Shown: positions 1,190 to 41,011 of the stretch, piece by piece
Layout of the letters: each line of letters starts with the position of its first letter
How positions within the stretch are numbered: the first letter of the stretch is position 1
From: a virus
DNA: 64,000 nucleotides
IMG/VR virus record: IMGVR_UViG_3300020156_000022
Coordinates: 40,983 to 104,982 of that record
Direction: 5' to 3' (one strand)
Made by a program: the position numbers and the translations under genes
The notes under the pieces: model-generated
The model's database searches: none
The model's input: the letters and a program-made list of their open reading frames with translations, nothing else
What the model was told of the DNA's origin: nothing

Positions 1190-1504
1190 TTACTTAATAC
1201 CTAGTTCCTTCAGAATAAGGTCATGCTCTACTGCATGGAATACATGCTCAGGAATCTTAACTCGATAGACCATCTTTTCGAATTCGTAGCTAATACTCAT
1301 CTCTAATTCTTGATGCATACCATCGCTATCGAGAAAAGCATTAGCTGCTTGGAGACGCTTAGTAATTTCGGGCAAAGCTTCAGAACGAACTTTTACCCAT
1401 CGACCCTTATAAGTTCTGTCAAAAATGCCGAAGCCATTAGTGAATAACCCTATAACTAGGATAATTCCTAAGACTACTATTAGGGTTTCTAACCAATCAG
1501 ACAT
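1190..1504 (-). CDS. Hypothetical membrane-anchored protein (start MSDWLETL)
   Basis: N-terminal hydrophobic helix; ATG directly after tRNA-Leu 3' end; the longer ORF-track start lies inside the tRNA. Confidence 0.75.
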   Translation of the reverse strand: MSDWLETLIVVLGIILVIGLFTNGFGIFDRTYKGRWVKVRSEALPEITKRLQAANAFLDSDGMHQELEMSISYEFEKMVYRVKIPEHVFHAVEHDLILKELGIK

Positions 1505-1505
1505 G

Positions 1506-1587
1506 TACTCACGGTGGGATTCGAACCCACAATCCTTTCGGCGCAGCATTTTAAGTGCTGAGTGTATACCAGTTCCACCACGCGAGC
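1506..1587 (-). tRNA. tRNA-Leu(TAA), bldA-type anticodon
   Basis: Cloverleaf with long variable arm, loop CTTAAAA, T-loop TTCGAAT. Confidence 0.93.
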
Positions 1588-1589
1588 AT

Positions 1590-1687
1590 TGGTTTTGTAA
1601 TCAGGAATAGTATCAGCATACGTTCTGACGTTTACCTGAACCAGACCTATCAACAAAGGCCCGTTCTAACATTAAACTATTACAAAA
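1590..1687 (-). ncRNA. tRNA-like RNA with encoded CCA and ~30 nt insertion in place of the T-loop
   Basis: Acceptor TTTGTAA/TTACAAA-A-CCA, D arm, anticodon-like stem GGCCT/AGGTC, T stem TCAGG/CCTGA enclosing an extra hairpin. Confidence 0.6.
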
Positions 1688-1688
1688 G

Positions 1689-1764
1689 TAGCGTCGGAGA
1701 GATTCGAACTCATCACTGTCAGGTTCCTAAGACCTGTGCCTCCTACCAATTGGGCTACGACGCC
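1689..1764 (-). tRNA. tRNA-Leu(TAG), short variable loop
   Basis: GGCGTCG/CGACGCT, loop CTTAGGA, T-loop TTCGAAT. Confidence 0.88.
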
Positions 1765-1769
1765 ATTGT

Positions 1770-2336
1770 TCATTTATATAGATTACGCATCTCGGCAACT
1801 TGTGCTGAGGTCTTCGCAACTGCTGCACTTAAGTCTGCCATACTAGAAGCTAGCTTGTCAACACTTGTCTGCAACTTAGCTAAGGCAACTTTAGTGTCAT
1901 CCACATAAGGCCATGGCTGCTGCACACCTAGTCTAGCATCTGGAAGGTACTGCTCGTAAGGTGCTGGTTTATCTGGTGCAGGCTTTTCAAAGACCATCCA
2001 AGACTTAAATGTTCTTCCTGCACCCTTAAAGATATCATAAGCTATCTTAACATTAACTTCAGGATCACGCCATCTACCACCGTTAGCCTGAATCTTAGGA
2101 TACTGCCAACGACCTGACAACTGAAAGATACCGTGATCTCTGTTTCCTACAGAACCAGGATCACTAGTTAACGGTGCAGTAGTACGAGAAATAGATTCAG
2201 TATCCGCAGATGACTCAGCTAACGCCACAGCAACGGCTACTACTGCCTCAGAATCATTAGTTCCGGGAACAATAGTAGTTTTACTAAAGCCTGCTTTAAT
2301 GCATAGATCCGCAACTTCATGTGGTGATAGCTTCAT
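1770..2336 (-). CDS. Lysozyme-like/lytic transglycosylase domain protein with C-terminal coiled coil
   Basis: AVAVALAESS...DHGIFQL...DPEVNVKIAY motif of SLT/lysozyme-like fold. Confidence 0.75.
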   Translation of the reverse strand: MKLSPHEVADLCIKAGFSKTTIVPGTNDSEAVVAVAVALAESSADTESISRTTAPLTSDPGSVGNRDHGIFQLSGRWQYPKIQANGGRWRDPEVNVKIAYDIFKGAGRTFKSWMVFEKPAPDKPAPYEQYLPDARLGVQQPWPYVDDTKVALAKLQTSVDKLASSMADLSAAVAKTSAQVAEMRNLYK

Positions 2337-2344
2337 GTCAAGTC

Positions 2345-2500
2345 CTAATTCTTATCAGCATTCTTTAGTTGCTCAGAATACATCTCTCTACGACGGATAG
2401 CTTCTTTACTAAACATCGGCGGCTCAACCTTTGTAGCTTTACGTCTAATGTCTGCCATTTCTTTATCTGAAATGGTATTAGGAATTTTATTCTTTTTCAA
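2345..2500 (-). CDS. Small basic hypothetical protein, 51 aa
   Basis: Manual translation MKKNKIPNTISDKEMADIRRK...; TTG start overlapping upstream stop. Confidence 0.5.
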   Translation of the reverse strand: MKKNKIPNTISDKEMADIRRKATKVEPPMFSKEAIRRREMYSEQLKNADKN

Positions 2501-2625
2501 GACGATTTCCTTTTGTCAGATTTATTGGATCTTTTGACAGGATTTCTTCTTGCTTTATCTCCGTTAGCATCTACTCGAATAATCTTAATCTTACCGTCTG
2601 ATTGCTTTTCGGGGTACTGTGCCAA
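2497..2625 (-). CDS. Small basic hypothetical protein, 42 aa
   Basis: Manual translation MAQYPEKQSDGKIKIIRVD...; GAGGTG SD upstream. Confidence 0.5.
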   Translation of the reverse strand: MAQYPEKQSDGKIKIIRVDANGDKARRNPVKRSNKSDKRKSS

Positions 2626-2712
2626 GATAAAAACACCTCATAAATTAGCTTTTCTTGCACTTAGGGCAATATTTTTCCATGATTCTACTATACCATAAGT
2701 TTGGAGACCTTG

Positions 2713-2786
2713 CACGGATGGAAGGACTCGAACCCTCGACAACGCAGGTTTGGAAGCTGCTGCTCTAGCCGCTGAGCTACACCCGT
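2713..2786 (-). tRNA. tRNA-Trp(CCA)
   Basis: Cloverleaf, loop TTCCAAA, G73. Confidence 0.9.
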
Positions 2787-2926
2787 ATAAAATTTTAATT
2801 CAGAAGAAAGGTCCGTGTACCGACCTTAACGCCACCCATTGCTACACTTGGTGACTACTTCCTAAGTAGAGAGAAGACCAACTCTTCTATGCGCATCGCA
2901 GGACTCGACCTGCACTCTCTAATTTG

Positions 2927-3002
2927 TAGCGGAAGCCGGATTTGAACCGACGATCTCAACCTCATGAGGGTTGCGAGGACGACCGAACTCCTCTACTCCG
3001 CA
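2927..3002 (-). tRNA. tRNA-Met(CAT), initiator-like
   Basis: Unpaired first acceptor position, D arm GAGGAGTTCGGTCGTCCTC, loop CTCATGA. Confidence 0.85.
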
Positions 3003-3004
3003 AG

Positions 3005-3076
3005 TGCCGAGTACTAGAATTGAACTAGTGTTTCAGGGTTATGAATCCTGTGTTCTAACCATTGAACTAACCCGGC
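3005..3076 (-). tRNA. tRNA-Met/Ile2(CAT)
   Basis: GCCGGGT/ACTCGGC, loop TTCATAA. Confidence 0.85.
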
Positions 3077-3088
3077 TTGTTACCTACT

Positions 3089-3117
3089 ACCTTACCATGT
3101 TGCTCAGCCCTTGTCAA
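3089..3117 (-). promoter_or_regulatory. SigA/HrdB-type promoter
   Basis: TTGACA-17nt-TAAGGT upstream of tRNA pair. Confidence 0.75.
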
Positions 3118-3206
3118 CAGGTTTCTTGTTTGATTTAGTTAGATAATTGATAATGTATACTTTGCTGTCCGTAACAGGTTTACGTAGAATTCTGCCTTTA
3201 AGTTGC

Positions 3207-3362
3207 TCAGTATTCATAGCACTTATCTTTTTTCCTGTTTCGACGATATTTCCTGCGATTTTCATGCTTTGATGCTGCACTAGAACGACGAAGCTCAAGG
3301 AGCTGACGCTGTTCCTCAGCAGTGTATTTACGCTTGTAGTTCATCATCAGCTCCTTTCTCAT
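3207..3362 (-). CDS. Small Arg/Lys-rich protein, 51 aa
   Basis: Manual translation ...MNYKRKYTAEEQRQLLELRRSSAASKHENRRKYRRNRKKDKCYEY; promoter TTGACA-17-TAGTGT at 3370-3398. Confidence 0.7.
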   Translation of the reverse strand: MRKELMMNYKRKYTAEEQRQLLELRRSSAASKHENRRKYRRNRKKDKCYEY

Positions 3363-3372
3363 GCTGTCTACA

Positions 3373-3597
3373 CTAGCGGATCAGGTTCTGGCTGTCAACC
3401 CACTGTACAACGGTTTTTCCTTGGTGTCCATGGATATCAATAACGTCTTGAATATTCTTATAGAAGCATAAAGATGTTTTAGAGCCTATCCAACGCATAG
3501 CACAACTGCCATCACTAAACTGTACACCTTCAGTAACAATACCTGTTCCTGAAATTCCAGTTTCATCTTCTATTCGATTAAGGTAGAATCGTCGCAA
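3373..3597 (-). CDS. Hypothetical phage protein
   Basis: ORF with SD; EDETGISGTGIVTEGVQFSDG pattern typical of small phage proteins. Confidence 0.7.
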   Translation of the reverse strand: MRRFYLNRIEDETGISGTGIVTEGVQFSDGSCAMRWIGSKTSLCFYKNIQDVIDIHGHQGKTVVQWVDSQNLIR

Positions 3598-3708
3598 GAT
3601 TTGTCTTCTCTCCTCAAAGAATATTTTCTAAAGATTTCATCTAATTCACCAAGAAGATCATTTACACGTTCTTGGTCTTTAGAGTCTAATTCTTCCCAAT
3701 CTAGATAA

Positions 3709-4044
3709 TCATTGTTCGTCATCGCTAGACCTCATAACTACTATCATCCATTCACCTGGACCTATTTTAAGATCTGAAGCTTCTCTTTCAGATAAATAAC
3801 GACCTTGGTATGAATAGTTAGTAGCTTCAGCCATACGCATAACCATTTCAGCGTTGCTTGCTGAAATTATAGAATGTACTTCTAATACACCGTCAGTTAG
3901 GCACGCCCAAATTTCCCCGCACTCAAAACCACGTTGAAATTCATTATCAACAGTATCAAATTCTAAAAGAAAATCTGAGGAATCGGCATCTGCGCGGATT
4001 CCTCTTCTCTCAGAATTACTTTCTGATCTCATGGTGCCTAACAC
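3709..4044 (-). CDS. Hypothetical protein
   Basis: ORF in operon context. Confidence 0.65.
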   Translation of the reverse strand: MLGTMRSESNSERRGIRADADSSDFLLEFDTVDNEFQRGFECGEIWACLTDGVLEVHSIISASNAEMVMRMAEATNYSYQGRYLSEREASDLKIGPGEWMIVVMRSSDDEQ

Positions 4045-4049
4045 CTTTC

Positions 4050-4994
4050 TTATGCATGAATCTCCTGGTTACATGTCGGACACCTACCAGCTTTGGTCAA
4101 TGTGTCATGTAGTTCATTCTCGGCTAGCAGTATACCAGATCGAACGGATTCAATGCTAGTGTCTTGCTCAACTATCGTTCGCTGAGCCTGAGCAAGTCGT
4201 TTCAAAATATTTTTAAACTTATTAAATTTAATGTAAGCTTTTTCCAGCTCTGCTATGTCAGGGAGGGCTGGAATATTTCTTACTGCCTCAAGGGCCTCTG
4301 ATGCCTTCTTAGCCTTACCTATGAGGTTAGCAAGAAGGTCCATACGCGCCTGGGTAGTTGTTGCTTGGGCAAGTAAAGCTTCTACTTGAGTTATTGATTT
4401 AGCTTGTTGCATAACATTAGCATAATCACCAAGTTGAAGTAAAAGCTTATCTTGATCCTTTTTACGGATATTGACCAAGCCTGATGCATTCTTCGCTCGC
4501 CTACTAGCTTCTTTAACTGCATTGAAAATAGTAGACACATTAGTTAGTTCACCAAGTACACGAGCAACAGAACTAGAACCTTCTTTAAGCAAATAAGGAG
4601 CATCGAATTGCCCGGCAAAATTAATTGATGCTACTTCTTGCGTGCCTGGCGAGATACCCAAAGCTTCTGTAACTTCGGAAGGTACTTGACGATTAAGCTT
4701 AGTAAAGCGGGATTCTTCGCTACCAGACTTAGCAACTTTGTAAACACTACTACCACCTATTTCTCTCTCTATAGTTACTGATGTTTCACTAGTTTTAACA
4801 GTAATCGCTGATACTTTAGTTCCTCTAGTAATGTAATCGGAGTCTAGGCTATTCATAGCAATAGCTTTCATAGCTCTAGTAAGTGCCGATTTTCCACTAG
4901 AAGACGCACCTACGATTACTGTCAGCTTTCCAAATTCCAATTCTACATCACGTAGACTTTGGAAGTTTTTAATTCTGATGGACTCGATCAACAA
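4050..4994 (-). CDS. SbcC/Rad50-like ATPase, N-terminal half ending in zinc hook
   Basis: IKNFQS, Walker A GASSSGKS, Q-loop FAGQFD, coiled coil, terminal CPTC. Confidence 0.85.
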   Translation of the reverse strand: MLIESIRIKNFQSLRDVELEFGKLTVIVGASSSGKSALTRAMKAIAMNSLDSDYITRGTKVSAITVKTSETSVTIEREIGGSSVYKVAKSGSEESRFTKLNRQVPSEVTEALGISPGTQEVASINFAGQFDAPYLLKEGSSSVARVLGELTNVSTIFNAVKEASRRAKNASGLVNIRKKDQDKLLLQLGDYANVMQQAKSITQVEALLAQATTTQARMDLLANLIGKAKKASEALEAVRNIPALPDIAELEKAYIKFNKFKNILKRLAQAQRTIVEQDTSIESVRSGILLAENELHDTLTKAGRCPTCNQEIHA

Positions 4995-5182
4995 TAATCC
5001 TTAACATCAGAAGGATCAACGAAAATTACCTCAGCCTCAGGATCTTCGTCCCTTACCTTAGCTAGTTTAACAGGGTAATCAATAGTCTTCAACCACTTAC
5101 CCAATCTGTGCTGCACAGTAAAACCTGCTATGATATTATCCGAAGTGTCTAGCACTATCCATAATGATGTGGCTCTAGCCAT
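4988..5182 (-). CDS. Hypothetical protein
   Basis: ORF with GGGAGA SD. Confidence 0.65.
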   Translation of the reverse strand: MARATSLWIVLDTSDNIIAGFTVQHRLGKWLKTIDYPVKLAKVRDEDPEAEVIFVDPSDVKDYC

Positions 5183-5205
5183 GTTGTTCTCCCATATAAG
5201 TATTA

Positions 5206-5379
5206 TTACCTATCTGCCGGATTGAGCCCATCTATTAGTGTACAGGTTGGCTTGCAATACTCCTTTTCTCCAACTTTGCACACAGGACACTTACCTTTAT
5301 TCGGCCTTAGCTTATACCCATTGATTTCTTTTAATGGCTTTCTAAATGGATTCTTTATTAGCGTCTTTCTATTTTGCAA
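5206..5379 (-). CDS. Cys-rich microprotein, ~57 aa (start uncertain)
   Basis: Manual translation ...KGKCPVCKVGEKEYCKPTCTLIDGLNPADR. Confidence 0.5.
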   Translation of the reverse strand: MQNRKTLIKNPFRKPLKEINGYKLRPNKGKCPVCKVGEKEYCKPTCTLIDGLNPADR

Positions 5380-5453
5380 TCAGGGCAAACATACATGTCA
5401 CTAGAATTTCCACTTTTGTGCTTGGCGCAAGCTACTAATATTTTTACAGTCAA
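5358..5453 (-). CDS. Zinc-ribbon microprotein, 31 aa
   Basis: MTVKILVACAKHKSGNSSDMYVCPDCKIERR; GGGGAG SD. Confidence 0.55.
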   Translation of the reverse strand: MTVKILVACAKHKSGNSSDMYVCPDCKIERR

Positions 5454-5472
5454 GACATCTCCCTAAACAAAC

Positions 5473-5500
5473 ATAGCCACCTGAATATTCAGGTGGCTAT
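5473..5500. terminator. Palindromic terminator-like hairpin
   Basis: ATAGCCACCTGAATATTCAGGTGGCTAT perfect inverted repeat followed by GTTTGTTT on minus strand. Confidence 0.7.
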
Positions 5501-5566
5501 TCTCAAAGTTCTGCTTTCCACGTCCTACGTCTGGCAATTTGCTTATCTTTAGGCATTTCAGTCTCC

Positions 5567-5662
5567 CTAGATAGGTCTGCCACAAGCTAGACAAATAAGG
5601 TTTCCTCGCTTATCCATCATAACTGTCCTACCGTGGTCTTTGCAAGCATCATGCTTACCCAT
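5567..5662 (-). CDS. Zinc-ribbon microprotein, 31 aa
   Basis: MGKHDACKDHGRTVMMDKRGNLICLACGRPI; GAGG SD. Confidence 0.6.
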   Translation of the reverse strand: MGKHDACKDHGRTVMMDKRGNLICLACGRPI

Positions 5663-5664
5663 GC

Positions 5665-5844
5665 CTAGACCTCGATAAACCCTGTACCTTTACAGCCTTT
5701 ACAAGAACCTTTAGCTGTTTGCCCGTTATTACAGCCCGCACAACGCAACTTATTGCCTTTTTGCATTCGCTTCTTTAAAGGATACCTGTTATCTCGCGGT
5801 GCGACCTCGTGTGGGGGTGTATTACCCTCTTTATAGCGAGCCAT
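5665..5844 (-). CDS. DnaJ-type zinc-finger microprotein, 59 aa
   Basis: ...RCAGCNNGQTAKGSCKGCKGTGFIEV; TAATG coupling with upstream ORF. Confidence 0.65.
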   Translation of the reverse strand: MARYKEGNTPPHEVAPRDNRYPLKKRMQKGNKLRCAGCNNGQTAKGSCKGCKGTGFIEV

Positions 5845-6023
5845 TAGGATTTATCTCCCTTATGGGAACCCTTATCACGGGAATGGTCTGGCTTACTGCC
5901 ACCACCAGTAGTTCCTCTACGACTAGTGTTAGTTCCTTTAGTCCAACGCCTTTCCACTTTCTGGGCATATTCCTCAAGCTGATCGGCAGACAGGTTCTTC
6001 TTATCGTCATCCTTTTTAGTCAT
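5844..6023 (-). CDS. Small hydrophilic protein, 59 aa
   Basis: MTKKDDDKKNLSADQLEEYAQKVERRW...; ATG directly after tRNA-Arg 3' end. Confidence 0.6.
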   Translation of the reverse strand: MTKKDDDKKNLSADQLEEYAQKVERRWTKGTNTSRRGTTGGGSKPDHSRDKGSHKGDKS

Positions 6024-6024
6024 G

Positions 6025-6097
6025 CACCCCTGACAGGATTCGAACCTGCGATTTACAGTTTAGAAGACTGTTGAGTTATCCGCTACTCTACAGGGGC
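6025..6097 (-). tRNA. tRNA-Arg(TCT)
   Basis: GCCCCTG/CAGGGGT, loop CTTCTAA. Confidence 0.9.
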
Positions 6098-6145
6098 ATT
6101 AAATTAGTTTTGAGTTTAAAGCGACCAAAACTATAAACAAACTTC

Positions 6146-6215
6146 GTGCATCGAGCGGGTTCGAACCGTATCTCTGGGTATGACCCCAGCGCATTTCCCT
6201 AATGCTACTCGATAC
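6146..6215 (-). pseudogene. Degenerate tRNA-like gene (CAT anticodon)
   Basis: Acceptor and D arm present, irregular anticodon loop, T stem of only 3 bp. Confidence 0.55.
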
Positions 6216-6364
6216 TAACATGGTGCCAGCCATGCTTTTACCATTACGAAAGACCCGGCTGCTACCGCATACCACACTTAATGCTGGCACACTAAGCTGA
6301 TCACGTTCGTACTCTCGGATTCCGTTTCTTAGCGTACGAAAGTCACCCGAGTATAACCAAACTG

Positions 6365-6436
6365 TACGCCGAGAGAATTACGATATCTCGTCCCGCGAGT
6401 TAAAAGCTCGCTGCTCTGCCTCTGAGCTACCGGCGC
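6365..6436 (-). tRNA. tRNA-Lys(TTT), atypical T-loop
   Basis: Loop CTTTTAA; T arm GAGAT-ATCGTAA-TTCTC. Confidence 0.85.
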
Positions 6437-6481
6437 TAGTCTTACAGAATACTACCAAGAACGTCTACATTTTGCTGAAAG

Positions 6482-6554
6482 TACGCCATAAGGGACTCGA
6501 ACCCTTGACCCACCGATTAAGAGTCGGTTGTCTCTGCCGCTGAGCTAATGGCGC
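6482..6554 (-). tRNA. tRNA-Lys(CTT)
   Basis: GCGCCAT/ATGGCGT, loop CTCTTAA. Confidence 0.92.
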
Positions 6555-6654
6555 TTGGTGAGATATTTGTTAGCCTCTCACTGGCATCAGCCTCACCCAT
6601 TTTACATCACGGAGGACATGATGTCTAGCTACTAGAAAGTTGACATGACATACC

Positions 6655-6710
6655 TGCACCAGCTAGGAATCGAACCCAGTATGCCACTGAACAGGTTTGC
6701 AACCCTGTTT
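6655..6710 (-). pseudogene. 5'-truncated tRNA remnant (anticodon and T arms only)
   Basis: ACAGG-GTTGCAAA-CCTGT and CTGGG-TTCGATT-CCTAG; no D arm or 5' acceptor strand. Confidence 0.55.
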
Positions 6711-6712
6711 TG

Positions 6713-6784
6713 TAGGGGCAGGGAATTTCGAAATCCCGACCTGCGGTATGTAACACCGCTGCTCTGCCTCTGAGCTACGCCCCC
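6713..6784 (-). tRNA. tRNA-Val(TAC)
   Basis: GGGGGCG/TGCCCCT, loop GTTACAT. Confidence 0.88.
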
Positions 6785-6945
6785 AAGCTACGTTTGAATT
6801 TATACCATCCAAACTGTTTTGCCGTTCTTCTTTTATGGCAGTTAGCACATCGTACCACACACTTCTCAATTTCTGCAAGTACTCGATCCCATTTAATTCC
6901 GTTTCTTACAGATTTACCTATATCAAAACTTTTTTCTTCTGGAAT
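6775..6945 (-). pseudogene. C-terminal remnant of an HNH endonuclease
   Basis: Frame reads PEEKSFDIGK...WDRVLAEIEKCVVRCANCHKRRTAKQFGW; N-terminal half and start codon missing. Confidence 0.7.
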
Positions 6946-7132
6946 TAGAAGGCTAGAACCGACTAAGGAAACTAGCCTTGATTGGCTTGCTGATAAAGCT
7001 TTACTAGCTGAACCTTCATTATGGGGTACTTTATCTGACAGTTTAGGGTATTGTATGAACTACCAGTTAACACAAACTAAGTCTAATGGTACATCCTTAG
7101 ATTTTATGTGTGCTTGAACCTGGCAGGATCTA

Positions 7133-7162
7133 ACTATAACTTAGGACTGCTTCCCCTGTCAA
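7133..7162 (-). promoter_or_regulatory. SigA/HrdB-type promoter
   Basis: TTGACA-18nt-TATAGT. Confidence 0.7.
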
Positions 7163-7330
7163 GCCAGGCTCGGCTGCCACTATTACTGCATATCGTTAAG
7201 CCTGTGCTAGGTCATTCGCCTACTTGCAGCATTGAGCTTATAGTTATCATACGTGCTTTGTCAACAGCCTTACTGTATACGCGCGCCGTTCGACGTAGTT
7301 TATTACATTGTGGAATGTGATATACTTGCG

Positions 7331-7402
7331 TGGAGAAATAGGGAGTTGAACCCTATCTTGAACTTTGCAAAAGTCCCGTGCAACCCTTAACACTTTATCC
7401 CC
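7331..7402 (-). tRNA. tRNA-Ala(TGC)
   Basis: G3:U70 pair, loop TTTGCAA, A73. Confidence 0.85.
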
Positions 7403-7454
7403 ATAGTAAGCGCAAGTGCGTCCAGTTTGCCCGGTCCTCGCGCTTACATCTACT

Positions 7455-7483
7455 ACTTTACATCGTCTTGGCTAGCTTGTCAA
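7455..7483 (-). promoter_or_regulatory. SigA/HrdB-type promoter
   Basis: TTGACA-17nt-TAAAGT. Confidence 0.75.
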
Positions 7484-7644
7484 CCCTCTAGACTCATAGA
7501 ATTTGCCAGAAGGATGTAGCCCTTTGCTGCTTCAGCCAATGCTTGAAGTCGATTCGCTTGAGCTTCACTCAAGTTGTAGCCCTGCGAGTCTTTTACCTTC
7601 TTCAGGCATTCCTCTGCTGACCTGAGTGCTTCATTTCGTGTCAT
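7480..7644 (-). CDS. Small leaderless hypothetical protein, 54 aa
   Basis: MTRNEALRSAEECLKKVK...; ATG 6 nt after the -10 of TTGACG-17-TAGGCT (7651-7679). Confidence 0.7.
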   Translation of the reverse strand: MTRNEALRSAEECLKKVKDSQGYNLSEAQANRLQALAEAAKGYILLANSMSLEG

Positions 7645-7692
7645 GCACCTAGCCTACAGGACTCTGACAGGATCGTCAAGGCTACGTATCTG

Positions 7693-7896
7693 TTATTTCT
7701 TAAATCTTCCTCGGCCTATAGCTCGTTGACTAATCAAATCAAGTAACTGCTCACGAATATCCATATTACGATTAAGAATTTTACGAGTATTAGCGATAGT
7801 AGTCTGACAGTTTGCTATGGCCGTCTCGACATCTAATAACTCTTCAGACAACTCTTTATCTGACCAATCACCGTAATCTGGTTGTTCAGTAAGCAT
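7693..7896 (-). CDS. Hypothetical coiled-coil protein
   Basis: ORF with SD, operon context. Confidence 0.65.
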   Translation of the reverse strand: MLTEQPDYGDWSDKELSEELLDVETAIANCQTTIANTRKILNRNMDIREQLLDLISQRAIGRGRFKK

Positions 7897-7900
7897 TTAT

Positions 7901-8506
7901 CTATTCCTTTTCATTTGGGTAAACATCATAGATCTTAAAATTATCAAAGGATCGGCTTATAGTTGGCCCAGCCTGGTACTGATAGTGCGATCCAGCTGCT
8001 CTTGAACCATACAACAAAGTAGTCGGCTCTGGTAAGTGGTAGAAGCCAAGTTGACTAACTTTCATACCTGGCCATAACAACAAAGGCATAGTTCCACTAT
8101 TACTTAATTCTAAGGTAATTTGCCCTTCAAATCCTGGATCAATAAACCCCGCAGTAGCATGAATAACCAACCCTAGCCTGCCTAAAGAACTTTTACCCTC
8201 AAGCTTAGCGGCTATGTTAGCACCTAATGCAATAGTTTCAAAGGTACAACCTAGCACAAATGCTCCTGGCTCTAATACAAATGCAGAACCCTTTGGAACA
8301 AATACATCTGTAAAGTAATCAGTTGAGTCTTCTTTAGGATCTACCAACGGCGCGTCCGCAGGGGAATCAAATTGTAACTGTACCTTAAACTCAGGAGAAA
8401 GTGTCATATCATAACTGGCAGGCTGAATTAGCTCTTCCCTGAAAGGCTGGATGATAATATTTTGGAATCTAATCTCTTCAAGAATTCCTCTATTAGATAC
8501 TAGCAT
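7901..8506 (-). CDS. dcd: dCTP deaminase
   Basis: IQPASYD, LEGKSSLGRLGL, HATAGFIDPGFEGQITLE. Confidence 0.95.
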   Translation of the reverse strand: MLVSNRGILEEIRFQNIIIQPFREELIQPASYDMTLSPEFKVQLQFDSPADAPLVDPKEDSTDYFTDVFVPKGSAFVLEPGAFVLGCTFETIALGANIAAKLEGKSSLGRLGLVIHATAGFIDPGFEGQITLELSNSGTMPLLLWPGMKVSQLGFYHLPEPTTLLYGSRAAGSHYQYQAGPTISRSFDNFKIYDVYPNEKE

Positions 8507-8732
8507 GATCTTCTCTCCATTCTAGTTTCACCTTGCCGCTTTCATGGAAAGCAAGATCAAGTATGGTATTATTATATACCTTTACCAGATCAATCTCAAT
8601 CTTTTTACCTAAAGGTACATATTTTCTTAGCAATGCCGCTGCGACAGCCTCATAGATTCTTACTTTTTCTTCAAGCACATCAAAAGACCTGGATGCTAGG
8701 TACTCATCCAGGTCTATAAATTCATTTGACAT
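8493..8732 (-). CDS. Hypothetical protein
   Basis: ORF with AAGG SD. Confidence 0.65.
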   Translation of the reverse strand: MSNEFIDLDEYLASRSFDVLEEKVRIYEAVAAALLRKYVPLGKKIEIDLVKVYNNTILDLAFHESGKVKLEWREDHASI

Positions 8733-8823
8733 TACTTACCTTTCTCAAGAAAATAGGAGCCGCATCGACAAACAACTTGCGGATCTTTGCCTACAAGTTA
8801 TCCTGGAGGTTGGCTCCTATTTG

Positions 8824-9174
8824 CTAGTATGCCTTATATTCAGCATGTCCAGCACTGACCATTCGATCATTGATGCTAGGAGTTTTAGTAGGGTCTTCTC
8901 CCCAAAGCCATAACTCTCCTAAATATCGGCCATACTTTTCTTTTTTATCCTTGGTAGTCATAACATATAGATACTTAAAACTACCATCAGGATTAGTAAG
9001 TAATTTCAATAACCATGCCCTGGCATTCTTACCGGCTTGTGTGGGTAGCTCAGGAGCATTAATTCTGTTGAATCTAATATGCATGTCTTGAAGAAGATCA
9101 CAACCAGCGTCTCGCCTTATTGTGATTGTATCAGCATCATAGACAGTTAAGATTTCAGCAGGGTAATCATACAT
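8824..9174 (-). CDS. Thermonuclease (SNase-like) family protein
   Basis: VYDADTI, IRFNRINAPE, KEKYGRYLG, INDRMVSAGHA. Confidence 0.88.
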   Translation of the reverse strand: MYDYPAEILTVYDADTITIRRDAGCDLLQDMHIRFNRINAPELPTQAGKNARAWLLKLLTNPDGSFKYLYVMTTKDKKEKYGRYLGELWLWGEDPTKTPSINDRMVSAGHAEYKAY

Positions 9175-9296
9175 ATTTATCTCCCATCGTATAAGAGATA
9201 AATCGGTAATAATTGAGGGTTGCAACTTCCAGTACAGCCGTGCAGCTTTCCCGGTTAACCAGATAGCTTTCTCACCTGTTCGTGGACCTCAATAAG

Positions 9297-9375
9297 AGCA
9301 GATAGGCGGAATCGAACCGCAGACATAAGACGCCTTTTGCAGAGGCGCGGCTATCACCAATAACCTTCTATCTGC
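9297..9375 (-). tRNA. tRNA-Cys(GCA) with non-canonical 8/4 fold
   Basis: 8 bp acceptor GCAGATAG/CTATCTGC, 4 bp T stem, long D stem, loop CTGCAAA, U73. Confidence 0.8.
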
Positions 9376-9410
9376 ACGTAAAGAATAATATTATTCTTTA
9401 CTAATAGAAT

Positions 9411-9521
9411 TTACTTTTTACCAGTACCTTTACATGCATTACAATCTATAGGAGGAAGACTATTACGTTCAAAAAACCCTCTACCTCTACATGACATACA
9501 TATTTCTTTTTCTTTTTCCAT
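9411..9521 (-). CDS. DnaJ-type zinc-finger microprotein, 36 aa
   Basis: MEKEKEICMSCRGRGFFERNSLPPIDCNACKGTGKK, two CxxCxGxG repeats; ATG directly after tRNA-Thr. Confidence 0.75.
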   Translation of the reverse strand: MEKEKEICMSCRGRGFFERNSLPPIDCNACKGTGKK

Positions 9522-9522
9522 G

Positions 9523-9597
9523 AGCCACCAGAGAGAATCGAACTCTCGACCTTTTCCGTACCAAGGAAACACTCTGACCAAACTGAGCTATGGCGGC
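9523..9597 (-). tRNA. tRNA-Thr(GGT)
   Basis: GCCGCCA/TGGTGGC, loop TTGGTAC. Confidence 0.92.
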
Positions 9598-9684
9598 AAA
9601 ACTAGTTTTTAGAAGCAGCCATTTCCCTTCCGGGCGGTACTGTGGAGAGACCCTTAGTTTCAAGGCTGAACTAGAAACCTTCCG

Positions 9685-9759
9685 AGCGGCCAGTGTGGCT
9701 CGAACACACTACTCTCTGCTTACGAGGCAGGGGCTTTAACCTGATTAAGCTACAGCCGC
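9685..9759 (-). tRNA. tRNA-Thr(CGT)
   Basis: GCGGCTG/TGGCCGC, loop CTCGTAA. Confidence 0.85.
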
Positions 9760-9763
9760 AATA

Positions 9764-9922
9764 TTAGTTAGACAATCTTTTTTGTTTTGTGCCGCAAGGC
9801 ACATGAGTAACTACCTTATTCTTGATTCTCCATCCACGAGTGCCTTTGCAATTGTCGCACACCCTAGGACCATTCTCATCAATGAGTCTTCCTCCGATTG
9901 TTGCATTATCTGTATTTGCCAT
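9764..9922 (-). CDS. Zinc-binding microprotein, 52 aa
   Basis: MANTDNATIGG...VCDNCKGTRGW...THVPCGTK; ATG directly after tRNA-Gly. Confidence 0.65.
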   Translation of the reverse strand: MANTDNATIGGRLIDENGPRVCDNCKGTRGWRIKNKVVTHVPCGTKQKRLSN

Positions 9923-9923
9923 G

Positions 9924-9994
9924 AGCGGAAGACGGGAATCGAACCCGCGACAAAACGTTGGAAGCGTCTTATGTTACCTCTACACCACATCCGC
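9924..9994 (-). tRNA. tRNA-Gly(TCC)
   Basis: GCGGATG/CTTCCGC, loop CTTCCAA, U73. Confidence 0.9.
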
Positions 9995-9996
9995 AT

Positions 9997-10079
9997 TGGT
10001 GCAACCGTACAGCCTGCGAGAATCTATTAGGCACGATTCTCATTGTCCTAGTGCCTGTAGGGACCAGCTTATCGGTTGC
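9997..10079 (-). ncRNA. CCA-ended RNA with acceptor-like stem and internal pseudoknot
   Basis: GCAACCG/CGGTTGC-A-CCA enclosing crossed helices AGGCAC/GTGCCT and GAGAATC/GATTCTC. Confidence 0.55.
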
Positions 10080-10163
10080 GTTGAGAAGTTTTCTAAGGCA
10101 TAAGCCTCGCATCTGAGCGGCCACTCTAGCATTAGCGCCCACCTATTCTCCCAAATCTCCGCG

Positions 10164-10234
10164 AGCGGCTAACGAGAATCGAACTCGTGCTTAAACCTTG
10201 GCAAGGTTTCGTGATACCATTTCACTATAGCCGC
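10164..10234 (-). tRNA. tRNA-Gly(GCC)
   Basis: GCGGCTA/TAGCCGC, loop TTGCCAA. Confidence 0.93.
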
Positions 10235-10243
10235 AATATTTAC

Positions 10244-10360
10244 TTATAGAAGTTTCTTGTCTATATAACCATTCTTACACTTGCCAGGACAATCTTTTAT
10301 TTTGCCTGCTTTAACTATAAAGCCCCTACCTCTACATGTCAAGCACATGACCAAGGCCAT
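10244..10360 (-). CDS. DnaJ-type zinc-finger microprotein, 38 aa
   Basis: MALVMCLTCRGRGFIVKAGKIKDCPGKCKNGYIDKKLL; GAGG SD. Confidence 0.7.
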   Translation of the reverse strand: MALVMCLTCRGRGFIVKAGKIKDCPGKCKNGYIDKKLL

Positions 10361-10365
10361 AAAAG

Positions 10366-10530
10366 TTAACCTCTTTTTCTAGGAGTATTCTTTACTCTTT
10401 TAATAAAGTCTTGTTGATTTTTCTTTGAAGTAGTTGCCAACAACGCAGCCGCATCTTCAAATTTCTTTTCTCTCAGAAGAGAGGCAGCAGTAAGATTAGC
10501 TTTTTTATCTAAACTGCTATGCTTTCCCAT
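10366..10530 (-). CDS. Small basic protein, 54 aa (start MGKHSS)
   Basis: GGAGG SD upstream of ATG. Confidence 0.65.
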   Translation of the reverse strand: MGKHSSLDKKANLTAASLLREKKFEDAAALLATTSKKNQQDFIKRVKNTPRKRG

Positions 10531-10657
10531 TGCGCTTAGCCTCCAAGTATTCTGCTTCTGAAAGCTTTGCTTTTGCAAGGTTTCTTATAGAAGGAGTCTT
10601 AGCTGCTTTACGTGTAGCTTTATTTAATTTTGTCCAAGGATCTTTTTTCTTAAGCAT
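10517..10657 (-). CDS. Small basic protein, 46 aa
   Basis: MLKKKDPWTKLNKATRKAAKTPSIRNLAKAKLSEAEYLEAKRNGKA; ATG directly after tRNA-Asp. Confidence 0.6.
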   Translation of the reverse strand: MLKKKDPWTKLNKATRKAAKTPSIRNLAKAKLSEAEYLEAKRNGKA

Positions 10658-10658
10658 G

Positions 10659-10733
10659 CGCGACTGAAGGGATTTGAACCCTCGATCTCTTGATTGACAA
10701 TCAAGTGCTTTAACCAGGCTAAGCTACAACCGC
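10659..10733 (-). tRNA. tRNA-Asp(GTC)
   Basis: GCGGTTG/CAGTCGC, loop TTGTCAA, G73. Confidence 0.9.
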
Positions 10734-10989: not shown

Positions 10990-11065
10990 CCCGAGCAACA
11001 GGATTCGAACCTGCATGTTTCCGTTAACCTTTCAACTGGTTCGTAGCCAGAGGGTATACGCCCGG
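10990..11065 (-). tRNA. Atypical tRNA-Arg(ACG) lacking a D arm at the normal position
   Basis: CCGGGCG/TGCTCGG, CTGG-CTACGAA-CCAG, canonical T arm. Confidence 0.65.
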
Positions 11066-19913: not shown

Positions 19914-22502
19914 CTAGAACGCAATATCTGCCGTCAGCCTTTGGAATTGCTCAGGAGTCATGCCAGAAAATTCATACTGCACTATGGCCCCTCCTAAAGC
20001 CATAGAAATTATGTTTCTATGCTTCTCAGCATCTAGCTTAGTATCAGTCTGTGGCATCAACAATTCCCCCTCCGGAGTCTGGAGAAGAACATTCCTGGAG
20101 CCGCCTGAGAGCTTGTCTAGCAATTTATTGAAATTAACCCACTGTTCTTCTGTAGGCATGTGATCAATAATTACAACAACTCTTTCAGCTTGCTGCTTAG
20201 GACCGCAACCCTCAGGGTCTTCTAGATAAGCTTTTTCTTTTAGCTTCTTATCAATTTCTGCTGTAGAAGTGAACTTCTCTGCCTCAGATCCAAGTGTAGG
20301 TAAGTATATATTCCTAGGAGTATGGGCTACAGTCTCATCTACTTCTTCAGGAGTTGGAGGTTCCATTACAGTACCTTCAGAGATTCTGTTTGCTGGTTCA
20401 TCTTCAAGTGTAGGTAAGTATATATCTCCTGGAGTAAGTACAGGACCATCTTCTACTTGGATAGCTCCATCTTCAAGAAGCTTAATCTCCTTAACTGATC
20501 CCCAACGCTTTCCTACATGCCAATCAGCTTTCATCATAGGCCACCCCGGTACTGGAAAGATTACCGCAGGTTGAAGAACACGAATAACGTCAGCTGGATT
20601 AAGGCTGCGATGCACATAAAACTCCAGTGCATCGTGGACATTCATGAACAGCCTTACTTTATCTTTCCAACCCATTTTACGAATAGCCTTACGAGCACGA
20701 ACCATTCCAATTCTGACGTAATCACCAGTAGCTCCACCTTGTACAGGATAGTTGAAGCAAGCTCTTTCTCCGCCTTCACGAATCCAACGGCGAGAATCGG
20801 TAAGTTCCCAAATAGGAATCATACGACCAAATTTGGTAACTACATGTCCGTGCTGATAGCCGAATTCAACCTGCTTTTCGGTAAATCGCTTAAGCTTAGG
20901 AAAAGCAGCAAAATATTGATTGAACAGATCTTCTGCCTCTTCTCTGGAGACATTAAGTCTTTTACCCAAAGCAATAGGAGTCATACCGAACAAAAGGCCG
21001 AAACCAATAGTCTTAGCCTTGGATCGATATTCTTTTGTTACTTGATCTTTAGATAGCTTGAACATCATCATAGCTACCTTGGTGTGAACATCCTCATCGT
21101 TTTCGAATGCTTCGATGAGTGCTGTCTCATTTGCCAATCCTGCGGCTGCTCGATATTCAGCCTGAGACAGGTCAAATCCTAGAATATAGTAATCATCAGG
21201 TGCGATTACCGCGTCACGGAAATTCAATTTATAGCTGGTGCCGTCTGCCAACTTGTAGTAATAACTCAGCGGAGTCTTACCATCATCATCTTTCAGGTTT
21301 ACTGATGGCTGATTTTGCTGGTTAGGATTAGCGGAACTGAATCGAGCAGTGCGCACATAACTTTGGTTCAATGAAGGATGCACCATACCATCCGGAGCAT
21401 ATCCGTAATCCTTGGCATATTTATCCAAGAAAGATGTAGTCAGTCGCTTCATGTTCTTATAGTTGGAAATCTTCTTAACTACAGGATTCTTTTCTGCCAA
21501 AATATCCAGAGCCATCTTCCCAGTAGACATTTTTTTGTCTTCCTTGGCGGCACCCTTAGTACTTGTGGTATAGACATTTACCGTCAGACCCAGACGCTCG
21601 AACAGGATCTCAGATAGCTGTTTAGGGCTCCCCAGATTAATGTTGAGCTTAGTTCCTGGCATGCCTAGTAGTTCGGCTAGCTCAGACTGAATTTCGTCAT
21701 TTAATTTGGCTGTAAACTCCTTGGCTCGATCAGACGCCTCCTGCATGAAAAACCAGTCATAGCGGATGCCGCAGTCCTCCATATCACAAATGACATAGAC
21801 AACTTCCATATCCACTTTATAAACTAGTTGATCTTTCACTTTAGGGTACTGATCAAGATGTAAAGCTAAACACCATAGGGCGTCTTCACATGCATACGTT
21901 ACTACCTTTGAACTGAGATCTAGTACATTAAATCGAAAAGCCTTTTTCTTCTTCTCAGTAAGGTGCTCGAACAGTTCTTCGAACTTAATCATCTTGTGTC
22001 CGAATTTGTTCAGTACCAGATCCTTTAGACCAAAATCCTGAAACTCTCGGGTGATATAAGCTTCTACCTGAGTATCTGACCTGGCAGGAAAATACCCGCT
22101 AGATTCTCGAACGTCTTTTCCAAAAATAGGATGATCTGATAATATCTCACGAAAAAACCGTGCCATGCGTCTAAGTTCGAAACCTAAATTGTGCGCAACG
22201 ATCAATCCTGATTGGAATGACTTCCAGAGAATTTCTGCGATAGCTAGATGATCAGTAAGATTTTCAGCAAAGTCATGAGCCATAGGAACATACCTTGCCC
22301 AATTAAGAGAATTGGTAAAACTGAAACCTACTAACAGATTTGTTTCTAGCTTTAGTGATCCTCGATCATCATCTTCTCCATGATACCCTGTTTCAATATC
22401 AAAGCCGATAGGCAGACCCTTATCGATCATGCCTGCCCAGAATTTTTCTAATTCCTCTACAGATCTTACAATGTCGTAGTTTTTAGTTACTACAGTTGAC
22501 AT
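19914..22502 (-). CDS. polA: Family A DNA polymerase with 3'-5' exonuclease and C-terminal extension
   Basis: DIET, AHN, YACEDA exonuclease motifs; RFSSANPNQQN, DLSQAEYR, KTIGFGLLFG, VHDAL. Confidence 0.95.
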   Translation of the reverse strand: MSTVVTKNYDIVRSVEELEKFWAGMIDKGLPIGFDIETGYHGEDDDRGSLKLETNLLVGFSFTNSLNWARYVPMAHDFAENLTDHLAIAEILWKSFQSGLIVAHNLGFELRRMARFFREILSDHPIFGKDVRESSGYFPARSDTQVEAYITREFQDFGLKDLVLNKFGHKMIKFEELFEHLTEKKKKAFRFNVLDLSSKVVTYACEDALWCLALHLDQYPKVKDQLVYKVDMEVVYVICDMEDCGIRYDWFFMQEASDRAKEFTAKLNDEIQSELAELLGMPGTKLNINLGSPKQLSEILFERLGLTVNVYTTSTKGAAKEDKKMSTGKMALDILAEKNPVVKKISNYKNMKRLTTSFLDKYAKDYGYAPDGMVHPSLNQSYVRTARFSSANPNQQNQPSVNLKDDDGKTPLSYYYKLADGTSYKLNFRDAVIAPDDYYILGFDLSQAEYRAAAGLANETALIEAFENDEDVHTKVAMMMFKLSKDQVTKEYRSKAKTIGFGLLFGMTPIALGKRLNVSREEAEDLFNQYFAAFPKLKRFTEKQVEFGYQHGHVVTKFGRMIPIWELTDSRRWIREGGERACFNYPVQGGATGDYVRIGMVRARKAIRKMGWKDKVRLFMNVHDALEFYVHRSLNPADVIRVLQPAVIFPVPGWPMMKADWHVGKRWGSVKEIKLLEDGAIQVEDGPVLTPGDIYLPTLEDEPANRISEGTVMEPPTPEEVDETVAHTPRNIYLPTLGSEAEKFTSTAEIDKKLKEKAYLEDPEGCGPKQQAERVVVIIDHMPTEEQWVNFNKLLDKLSGGSRNVLLQTPEGELLMPQTDTKLDAEKHRNIISMALGGAIVQYEFSGMTPEQFQRLTADIAF

Positions 22503-26606: not shown

Positions 26607-26996
26607 TTATCCTTCGAAATGCTGAGTTTCGTTTGGGTTTACATAAGTTTCGCCTGGTTGCGTTACTGGGCTAGCATCCCCAGGCATATCACGTCCAGCC
26701 CAAGTTTCAGCTTGCTCAATAGGTTCTTTACGTGGACGACCACGACGTTTTGGCTCAGGCTTTTCTACAGCGCTATACTCATCAGCTAGAGTATTAAGCA
26801 AACTCTTACCAACAACAAAGCTATCTCCACCATCAACAGGAGCAAGCCTATATCCAGTTTTTACCTTATAGCCTAATGGAGTAGCTACAGCTTCGTCTGA
26901 TTTAAATTCCTCAACTACAGTGAATTGCTTACCTGCAAACAATTCATCCATACGAGCTTTACGAGTACTATGCCACTTAGTATTTTTTTCTGCCAT
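26607..26996 (-). CDS. Hypothetical protein with AT-hook motif
   Basis: PKRRGRPRK. Confidence 0.7.
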   Translation of the reverse strand: MAEKNTKWHSTRKARMDELFAGKQFTVVEEFKSDEAVATPLGYKVKTGYRLAPVDGGDSFVVGKSLLNTLADEYSAVEKPEPKRRGRPRKEPIEQAETWAGRDMPGDASPVTQPGETYVNPNETQHFEG

Positions 26997-27028
26997 ATTA
27001 CACCTCTCTCAGTAGTAGCAAGCGCTAC

Positions 27029-27211
27029 TTACTTTAAAATCGGTGGAATATGACTTTTTCCTGTCTGTCGAATCTCCTGAATATCAGTGAAAAGCTCATG
27101 AGCTATACCTTTATAGAGGGATTCGTGTTGATCATGCTCCGCAGCAGCTTGGCAATACCTGACATATAGAACTACTTCTAAATTCAGTAATTCGGCGACA
27201 TCGTTGTCCAT
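27029..27211 (-). CDS. Hypothetical protein
   Basis: Small ORF in operon. Confidence 0.55.
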   Translation of the reverse strand: MDNDVAELLNLEVVLYVRYCQAAAEHDQHESLYKGIAHELFTDIQEIRQTGKSHIPPILK

Positions 27212-40186: not shown

Positions 40187-41011
40187 TTATCCGTTAATTA
40201 GTTTCTTTACTGTCATATAAGATGCTCCACGCATTACTGTCTGATCTGCATGAGATGTACTCTGTGCGTGCTGCAACACTACTTCACCAGCATTGGAACC
40301 TATAGGCAAAATAAATCTTTCCTGGATGGCTGTCCAATACATCGCGCTGGCCAGACCGTAGGCTACTTCAGTAGTCATCTGGCTTGCGTTAGTTCGCATT
40401 AAAGTATTACCGTTATCTGTTGAGTTTACGGCGGGTCCAGTACATGCTCGTAATCCCACTGTTCCAGAAGGGACTTTCCAAGCAAGTTTGATATTACCAT
40501 TCTGCCCGGAGCAAATAGCAAATAACTCTACGCGATACTTGGTATTTGCAGAAGCACTAAACCTTAGAACAGTATCGTCATTCAATGTGGTGTCGTTGGA
40601 ATAGCCCTGGTCGGTGTTCTTATAGATAGTGAACTCTGGCTCAAAAGCAGAATCAGGCAGCCCGTGCACACCTGGAGAAACATTAGCTATGTGGTCTTGA
40701 GCCTCTTGAAAATCTCTTGCGGAAACTCCATGAACTACAGGTGCTCCCTGAGCGTGAGATTTAGCTGTGGTTCCGTCTTGTCCACGAGTAATGAGGAATG
40801 TCCCCGGTGATCCGCCCTTAGGACCAGTTACAGTAACCAGCTCTTCATTAGAAGTATCTGGATCTAATCTTAAAGTATAGGGGTATTGTGATGGAAATCC
40901 TGTACTGGTGCTTAGAGCTACTTCTGTAGCTCCGGTAGAAATTCCACCTACTGTTGCAATAGTGGACAGTGCTGCTGTATTACTGTAATAGCGCATTATA
41001 TGTTCTCCCAA
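40187..41011 (-). CDS. Minor tail protein
   Basis: EELVTVT..ITRGQDGTTAKSHAQGA.V.H motif; position in tail module. Confidence 0.75.
   Translation of the reverse strand: MGEHIMRYYSNTAALSTIATVGGISTGATEVALSTSTGFPSQYPYTLRLDPDTSNEELVTVTGPKGGSPGTFLITRGQDGTTAKSHAQGAPVVHGVSARDFQEAQDHIANVSPGVHGLPDSAFEPEFTIYKNTDQGYSNDTTLNDDTVLRFSASANTKYRVELFAICSGQNGNIKLAWKVPSGTVGLRACTGPAVNSTDNGNTLMRTNASQMTTEVAYGLASAMYWTAIQERFILPIGSNAGEVVLQHAQSTSHADQTVMRGASYMTVKKLING

Follow-up and report, generated by a model that had tools for sequence, protein, structure and literature searches.

The thrU-tyrU-glyT-thrT-tufB operon of Escherichia coli combines transfer RNAs (tRNAs) with a protein gene under a single promoter, and processing separates them. 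The tRNAs of animal mitochondria are said to punctuate the transcripts in which they lie, an arrangement reportedly set out by Ojala, Montoya and Attardi in 1981. In mycobacteria, a 5'-terminal ATG or GTG is both necessary and sufficient for the efficient translation of leaderless mRNAs, which does not hold for TTG (Shell 2015, PMC4633059). Here we describe a tRNA gene array in a 64,000-nucleotide stretch of virus DNA (the window), which is the last 64 kb of IMG/VR record IMGVR_UViG_3300020156_000022, a single virus contig of 104,982 bp and 42.8% GC. At some of the tRNA genes of this array, the ATG of a small open reading frame (ORF) without a Shine-Dalgarno (SD) sequence follows the tRNA after a single C. 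A preliminary description of the window had noted the arrangement at five tRNAs and proposed that tRNA maturation releases leaderless messages. On the comparisons presented below, release of these messages by tRNA 3' processing, at one or the other of two cut sites, appears quite probable; as to the site itself, we lean slightly towards a cut after the encoded C, which would yield a leaderless message with an exact 5'-AUG.

Results

Anatomy of the tRNA-ORF junctions

We define a junction as the sequence N73-C-ATG, in which the discriminator base N73 is followed by an encoded C at position 74 (C74) and the ATG occupies tRNA positions 75-77; an ORF that starts there has an offset of 1. The discriminator was placed with ARAGORN and with the Rfam tRNA model, which agreed for the five tRNAs named in the preliminary description. 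These five do end in N73-C-ATG, with N73 at window positions 1506, 6025, 9523, 9924 and 10659. Their ATGs begin where they had been reported, at 1504, 6023, 9521, 9922 and 10657 on the minus strand, and open ORFs of 104, 59, 36, 52 and 46 amino acids (aa), respectively. The minus strand carries all 29 tRNA genes and nearly all other genes of the contig, and all features described below for the window lie on it. Over the whole contig, N73-C-ATG is present at 8 of 29 tRNAs, and every one of the 8 ATGs opens an ORF of 34-104 aa; the 3 junctions outside the window are at Ser-GCU (64 aa), Ile-UAU (34 aa) and Glu-UUC (79 aa). The anatomy of the junctions, their statistical excess and conservation, the coding status of their ORFs, and the C74-only rule in phage and host-type tRNA genes are established directly by the observations that follow.

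Two of the five units consist of a tRNA, its junction ORF and a short interval before the next tRNA. The tRNA-Gly(UCC) gene (9923-9994; N73 = T at 9924, C74 at 9923; Rfam score 60.2 bits) is followed by a zinc-ribbon-like ORF of 52 aa (9764-9922), whose TAA stop lies 4 nt ahead of tRNA-Thr(CGU) (9684-9759, ARAGORN), so that the ORF exactly fills the gap between the 2 tRNAs. The tRNA-Thr(GGU) gene (9522-9597; N73 = T at 9523, C74 at 9522; 65.5 bits) is followed by an ORF of 36 aa (9411-9521) with two CxxC pairs and a weak match to DnaJ_CXXCXGXG (E = 0.0014), and its stop is 35 nt ahead of tRNA-Cys (9296-9375).

The remaining three units run on into further small ORFs or terminator-like hairpins rather than into the next tRNA. 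After tRNA-Arg(UCU) (6024-6097; N73 = G at 6025, C74 at 6024; 66.5 bits), a basic, Gly-rich junction ORF of 59 aa (5844-6023) leads a chain as its first cistron; a second ORF of 59 aa (5665-5844) is joined to it by a TAATG stop/start overlap, 2 SD-led micro-ORFs follow, of 31 aa (5567-5662, GAGG upstream) and 17 aa (5503-5556, GGGAGA upstream), and the unit ends in a terminator-like hairpin of 12 bp with a T run (5473-5500). After tRNA-Asp(GUC) (10658-10733; N73 = G at 10659, C74 at 10658; 70.6 bits), a Lys-rich junction ORF of 46 aa (10517-10657) is overlapped by a micro-ORF (10366-10530) with GGAGG 10 nt upstream, which is followed by a 38-aa micro-ORF with a CxxC pair (10244-10360). After tRNA-Leu(UAA) (1505-1587; N73 = A at 1506, C74 at 1505; 53.9 bits), the junction ORF of 104 aa (1190-1504) belongs to no Pfam family and has an N-terminal hydrophobic helix, and about 30 nt past it there is a terminator-like hairpin of 9 bp with a T run (1140-1161). 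Thus the preliminary description was correct about the coupled chains behind the Arg and Asp ORFs and about the nature of the proteins, namely the CxxC pairs of the Thr and Gly ORFs and the hydrophobic helix of the Leu ORF. In a Pfam search of the junction ORFs, no family scored above threshold.

Also on this contig, outside the window, a tRNA-like element of about 115-120 nt, reduced to an acceptor stem of 7 bp and a T arm, is followed by a C-ATG ORF of 69 aa; a second element of this kind, again with a C-ATG ORF, occurs in a related contig (G001, see below). These 2 elements indicate a processing signal, rather than tRNA identity, as the feature that accompanies such ORFs.

Statistical excess

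Given C74, the binomial probability of finding 8 ATGs at this position by chance is 2.5e-8. The preliminary description had cautioned that many tRNAs here end in N-C-A, such that an ATG would need only 2 more matching bases; we find that the excess survives this consideration, with P = 4.7e-7 given C74-A75. A G follows N73-CAT in 8 of 8 cases, and all 8 frames are open for at least 34 codons, which we estimate from base composition to be true of about 1 random frame in 10. When all offsets from -6 to 8 were compared, an ATG opening an ORF of at least 28 aa was found at offset 1 and at no other. On the strength of the ATG excess and this single-offset spike, we reject chance as the origin of the junctions.

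We also considered CAT as a processing motif that merely resembles a start codon. This reading was rejected, since each of the 8 CATs is followed by G and an open frame, and since in a general phage sample (IMG/VR loci, each chosen for one tRNA ending in N73-CAT) a G follows N73-CAT in only 9 of 74 tRNAs, which is the chance level.

Conservation in related phages

Three related uncultured contigs, G001, G002 and G003 (41-43% GC), were found with the array's dCTP deaminase gene as the query and were analysed as whole contigs; the present genome is designated G000. Junctions are present at 8 of 33 tRNAs in G001 and 4 of 26 in G002, with one C-GTG in addition in each, and at 2 of 15 in G003. The identical single spike of ORF starts at offset 1 is seen in the relatives, so that the enrichment in related arrays by which the preliminary description had proposed to judge its idea is present in G001-G003, as it is in cultured Streptomyces phages (below).

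The ORFs themselves behave as genes. The Glu(UUC) ORF begins with MITLQE in both G000 and G001, and the 2 copies show 22 synonymous and 29 non-synonymous differences with all Cys residues retained; the Asp junction ORF has an orthologue at the same tRNA junction in G001. Between G002 and G003, there are 11 synonymous and 6 non-synonymous differences in the Asp ORF, and 13 synonymous and 4 non-synonymous in the Arg ORF, where ATG and GTG are exchanged at the identical base. The view that the ORFs are real is therefore borne out by orthologues with synonymous changes, conserved Cys residues, N-termini kept from Met1 and the ATG/GTG swap. Judged from these alignments, the junction ORFs are under purifying selection and are conserved from residue 1.

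Members of the same families are also found in other settings. In G001, a zinc-ribbon protein is flush behind Leu-UAA and a DUF397 protein flush behind Glu-CUC; in the window, the zinc-ribbon and DUF397 families lie away from tRNAs, at 861-992 and 691-861, and start by GTGA and TAATG overlap. As the same families are flush beside a tRNA in one place and coupled to another ORF elsewhere, the mode of starting follows the context.

These exchanges bear on a reading in which the junctions are a by-product of cassette exchange, the tRNA genes serving as recombination anchors or as targets of homing nucleases and the flush ATG marking a cassette border and not an expression device. Such a reading accommodates the finding that different ORFs lie behind Leu-UAA in G000 and G001 while the same ORF families occur at different tRNAs, and it accommodates the overlap between HNH genes and tRNA ends seen here and in Magritte and Forrest; it leaves unexplained, however, the translation of first cistrons without an SD, the purifying selection from Met1, and why the join always follows exactly one C. 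As a complete account we consider it very improbable, and as a statement about cassette borders it is compatible with release by tRNA processing and is not an alternative to it.

Translation signals

At ordinary ORF starts, the median energy of the predicted anti-SD duplex is -5.5 kcal/mol, and 65% of starts are at or below -4; the median at random positions is -2.8. The junction ORFs are at the random level (-2.3 kcal/mol for the Leu ORF, for example), in agreement with the original claim that they lack an SD. An SD hidden in the 3' strand of the tRNA was considered and rejected, given the random-level pairing energy and given that this strand is paired in the acceptor stem. Over their first 45 nt, junction ORFs fold less than random 45-mers do (P = 0.003), and A makes up 41% of codons 2-11. 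Among junction ORFs of at least 28 aa, the start codons are 22 ATG and 2 GTG, with 2 TTG cases in G002 that are ambiguous; in a crude set of strongly SD-led starts the proportions are 66% ATG, 22% GTG and 12% TTG, a contrast that is weak and amounts to a trend only.

It may be asked whether genome compaction would be sufficient to account for these features. In that case the genes would simply abut a required C74, initiation would occur internally, without an SD, at an unstructured A-rich start, and tRNA cutting would be irrelevant to expression. The tight packing of the array, its TAATG and GTGA overlaps, the ORFs that exactly fill tRNA-tRNA gaps, the A-rich and weakly folded start regions, and the occurrence of the junction in low-GC phages of other hosts are all in keeping with compaction. 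Yet under compaction the offsets should vary over small values and some starts should be TTG; what we observe is offset 1 only, with ATG or GTG. Furthermore, the 7-bp acceptor stem of a folded tRNA ends 2 bases before the AUG, where some 12-15 nt of single-stranded RNA are required by a 30S subunit. Leadered starts without an SD are, moreover, not translated in mycobacteria (PMC4633059). For these reasons we regard compaction alone as an unlikely explanation.

Occurrence in other phages

Outside the present clade the arrangement is patchy. Among 551 other tRNAs in the loci of the general sample, only 8 are followed by a C-ATG ORF of at least 28 aa, although ORF starts still show a small peak at positions 75-76. 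A few unrelated phages have the junction repeatedly, among them one of 59% GC (L202), at 3 of 9 tRNAs. Among cultured phages, we found junction ORFs at 5 of 41 tRNAs in Samisti12 and 4 of 36 in Forrest (both Streptomyces), at 1 of 27 in Trina (Rhodococcus), a single doubtful one among 32 in Bxz1 (Mycobacterium), and none among 45 in Cece or among 26 in Magritte (both Microbacterium), the latter being the closest cultured relative by capsid. In view of the last three phages, the feature is not universal in actinophages. The 2 Streptomyces phages resemble the present one in having N73-C-ATG or N73-C-GTG junctions, with ORFs of 49-109 aa, and C74 without CCA in all or nearly all tRNAs; they differ in the frequency of junctions, which is about 11-12% of tRNAs as compared with 24-28% here. 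Two of the 4 junction ORFs of Forrest, gp127 and gp138, have been annotated as coding sequences whose first base directly follows the tRNA. In the aggregate, the arrangement is used heavily in this clade, is present in cultured Streptomyces phages and is sporadic elsewhere.

Host of the phage

The contig encodes a portal protein, a major head protein, a DNA polymerase, helicases and a collagen-like tail protein, and so derives from a tailed phage; a search of sequencing runs found DNA of the phage in soil-metagenome runs only, and no RNA run that contains it. Its host is probably an actinobacterium, as the preliminary description had assumed, to judge by the capsid, Ro60, DUF397 and Lsr2-like proteins, whose relatives indicate actinophages and actinobacteria. 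Among cultured phages, the closest capsid is that of Microbacterium phage Magritte, with 53% identity in the major capsid protein; the Ro60 protein is 55-57% identical to Ro60 proteins of Streptomyces phages, about 350 of its 357 phage matches being actinophages; the top cellular matches of the DUF397 protein are in Actinoplanes, Pseudonocardia and Streptomyces; and the Lsr2-like domain scores 28 bits, slightly below the curated cut-off. A search for WhiB as a further host marker found none.

The Ro60 gene (TROVE and vWA domains) adjoins the tRNA array at genome positions 37934-39676, directly upstream of the window, and is likewise beside a tRNA array in Streptomyces, Mycobacterium, Gordonia and Microbacterium phages. 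Homologues of the DUF397 protein also occur on short contigs binned as Patescibacteria, Saccharibacteria, Verrucomicrobiota and Acidobacteria metagenome-assembled genomes (L217, L218, L222, L230, L234, L240 and others); these may be mis-binned contigs of phages related to this one.

The probable tRNA 3' cut site

Of greater consequence for the mechanism is the encoded 3' end of the tRNAs. In the whole contig, C74 is present in 28 of 29 tRNAs and an encoded CCA in none of 29. In one sampled genome each, the tRNA genes of Streptomyces have C74 in 25 of 25 and CCA in 4 of 25, and those of Actinoplanes have C74 in 24 of 24 and CCA in 2 of 24; C74 is present in 35 of 36 tRNAs of Forrest and in 41 of 41 of Samisti12. 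The C74-only rule, with few CCA, also spans the tRNA genes of Cece and Magritte, and in the general IMG/VR sample C74 is found in 496 of 551 other tRNAs. In the present genome C75 is avoided, occurring in none of the 28 C74 tRNAs, and C-T-T follows 9 of the 29.

Maps of 5' ends in Propionibacterium acnes (Lin 2013, PMC3848588) and in Streptomyces coelicolor (Romero 2014, PMC4681348) show tRNA precursors cut between C74 and C75 of an encoded CCA, and the authors of the former study suggest that the same nuclease may cut CCA-less precursors too (PMC3848588). Taken together with the C74-only genes of actinobacteria, these cuts suggest that the C probably stays on the tRNA and that the message starts exactly at the AUG. 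The preliminary description had instead invoked a classical RNase Z cut after N73, which would leave a C-AUG end. Its release model thus fares well as regards the reality of the SD-less ORFs and their enrichment, and its cut site is probably wrong, in light of the C74-only genes and the mapped C74-C75 cuts.

A cut by RNase Z right after the discriminator would leave a one-base leader on the message, and the encoded C74 would be discarded and then re-added with CCA. This version deserves separate consideration; cleavage after N73 is what textbooks describe for the CCA-less tRNAs of Bacillus. An RNase Z homologue is present in S. coelicolor (PMC4681348), and ORF starts one base downstream in the general sample make it seem that very short leaders are tolerated. 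On the other hand, retention of C74 in 28 of 29 phage and 49 of 49 actinobacterial tRNA genes, when CCA is not retained, is hard to explain if C74 is discarded; the mapped actinobacterial cuts fall after C74; and the start codon in mycobacteria had to be at the very 5' end (PMC4633059). We therefore judge a cut after N73 to be fairly unlikely. An RNase Z or CCA-adding enzyme encoded by the phage was looked for in the ten largest ORFs upstream and was not found; the products of these ORFs include Ro60, a metallophosphatase, a PD-(D/E)XK nuclease, a sliding clamp and ThyA.

Discussion

A model for release of leaderless messages

Co-transcription, the site of the cut and leaderless translation are steps that we infer from the arrangement of the genes. 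According to our model, a few sigma-70-like promoters would drive transcription of the tRNA arrays into long precursors, in which the small protein genes would be included. A host activity would cut at the 3' end of each tRNA, most likely after C74, as in the Streptomyces and Propionibacterium maps, and less likely after N73, such that the downstream fragment would begin at the AUG or one base before it. C74 would remain on the tRNA, where the host nucleotidyltransferase would complete the CCA, and the freed message, having neither leader nor SD, would enter the leaderless initiation route that is efficient in actinobacteria. Downstream cistrons of the same fragment would be translated through stop/start overlaps or from their own SD sequences. 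The 3' end of the message would be set by the next tRNA, through RNase P cleavage, or by a terminator; for the Gly junction, it would be set by the 5' end of tRNA-Thr(CGU). From junction ORF stop to next tRNA, the distance is 4 or 35 nt in the window, as given above; G003 has a case with 1 nt and G001 one with 27 nt.

Among predicted transcription signals, promoter-like sites lie ahead of tRNA runs and terminator-like hairpins behind ORF chains; no such signal separates a tRNA from its ORF. The sequence TTGACA-17-TATAGT is upstream of tRNA-Gly(GCC) (10314-10342), and similar sites with spacers of 17 or 18 nt are upstream of the Ala-Val-Lys-Lys-Arg run (7133-7162 and 7455-7483). Primary leaderless transcripts from promoters within the tRNA genes were also considered and rejected, since none of the five ATGs has a promoter-like site ending about 7 nt ahead of it.

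Several points weigh against the model. The promoter and terminator sites just described are consensus matches, and their counts are not above those in shuffled controls. A processed, 5'-monophosphate end is perhaps translated less well than a primary one and attracts RNase E/J. Leaderless translation in mycobacteria was demonstrated with primary-transcript reporters (PMC4633059). The tRNAs on which the published cut between C74 and C75 was mapped encode CCA (PMC3848588, PMC4681348), the CCA-less tRNAs of S. coelicolor being cut only "within a few nucleotides downstream" (PMC4681348), and P. acnes is without an obvious RNase Z (PMC3848588). Finally, a phage of 29% GC that is unlikely to infect actinobacteria (L157) has the junction at 3 of 7 tRNAs, and the general phage sample also contains ORF starts one base further downstream; these two observations imply that neither actinobacterial proficiency in leaderless translation nor a C74 cut is the whole story. 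In low-GC phages of other hosts, related junctions are also seen at slightly different offsets.

Other features of the array

Some further elements of the array may be related to processing or to gene turnover. A 15-nt trailer, CTTGAAATTGTATGG, is identical behind different tRNAs in 3 phages: Tyr-GUA here (genome complement of 26952-27037) and Lys-CUU in G002 (22139-22214) and G003 (54239-54314). Three tRNAs reported by ARAGORN have abnormal anticodon loops, with a two-base "ca" or a four-base "gatt" or "atat" (window 6146-6215; genome complement of 40694-40771 and of 40847-40921), and may be decayed genes, frameshift-suppressor-like tRNAs or processing spacers. Additional T-arm hairpins (GGTTCGAWTCC, 5-bp stem), which are without a full cloverleaf, lie between tRNA genes, with predicted N73 at window positions 10736, 10796, 10990 and 6655 on the minus strand; of these, the hairpin that ends at 10990 also has a complete acceptor helix of 7 bp and is weakly matched by the Rfam tRNA model (22 bits; 10990-11065). 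The hairpins may be remnants of decayed tRNAs, or they may act as processing signals. Between tRNA-Gly(GCC) and tRNA-Gly(UCC), the gap of 83 nt (9997-10079) gave no match with ARAGORN or Rfam.

An HNH endonuclease frame at about 6775-7030, intact in its C-terminal part and broken upstream, ends inside the 5' end of tRNA-Val, an overlap of the kind mentioned above for Magritte and Forrest. An 85-nt portion of it is 86% identical in DNA sequence to the HNH gene gp124 of Streptomyces phages Forrest and Jada, and apart from this portion a search for near-identical phage DNA found none.

Comparison with known systems

In full-text literature searches we found no account of leaderless genes that abut tRNAs, whether in phages or in bacteria, and no comment on the junctions of Forrest and Samisti12. 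Mitochondrial punctuation and actinobacterial leaderless mRNAs are each known; it is their combination in phages or bacteria that we did not find in the literature. We put forward, tentatively and at a little short of even chances, the broader proposal that many actinophage tRNA arrays, including those of cultured Streptomyces phages, are promoter-free and SD-free expression platforms, in which an endonuclease cut after C74 would free AUG- or GUG-led messages and microprotein synthesis would be gated by the folding and processing of the upstream tRNA. If this is true, mitochondrial tRNA punctuation would have a counterpart in a bacterial virus, and the messages would be the first leaderless mRNAs produced by tRNA maturation in a bacterial system. 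The phages would have a new route of gene expression that needs only an upstream tRNA, without promoter or ribosome-binding site, and whose output is tied to tRNA maturation; bacterial leaderless translation would be able to use processed as well as primary RNA ends. The abundance of orphan micro-ORFs within phage tRNA arrays would then be explained, the C74-only design of actinobacterial tRNA genes would have a rationale, and annotators should accept starts that are flush with tRNA ends. The idea can be tested directly in the cultured Streptomyces phages Samisti12 and Forrest.

As compared with operons of the tufB type, the junction ORFs described here differ in being flush with the tRNA, with no leader and, as tested above, no SD, whereas tufB keeps a normal leader and SD at some distance from the last tRNA. 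The likeness to actinobacterial leaderless mRNAs (PMC4633059, PMC3848588, PMC4681348) is closer at the start codon: leader and SD are both absent, the phage messages would have ATG or GTG as their first codon, and many of the known leaderless mRNAs also encode small proteins. Those mRNAs are, however, primary transcripts with a promoter-defined +1 and a 5'-triphosphate, whereas cleavage of the phage precursor would result in a monophosphate end.

With mitochondrial punctuation, the array shares ORFs that abut tRNAs without an untranslated region, messages that would be leaderless, and tRNA excision by RNase P and a 3' endonuclease that would define both ends of a message. The 2 systems differ in several respects. 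The phage is in a bacterial host that otherwise uses SD sites; only about a quarter of its tRNAs are involved; one encoded C, probably kept on the tRNA, intervenes between tRNA and ORF; and the predicted phage fragments can be polycistronic, with coupled downstream cistrons.

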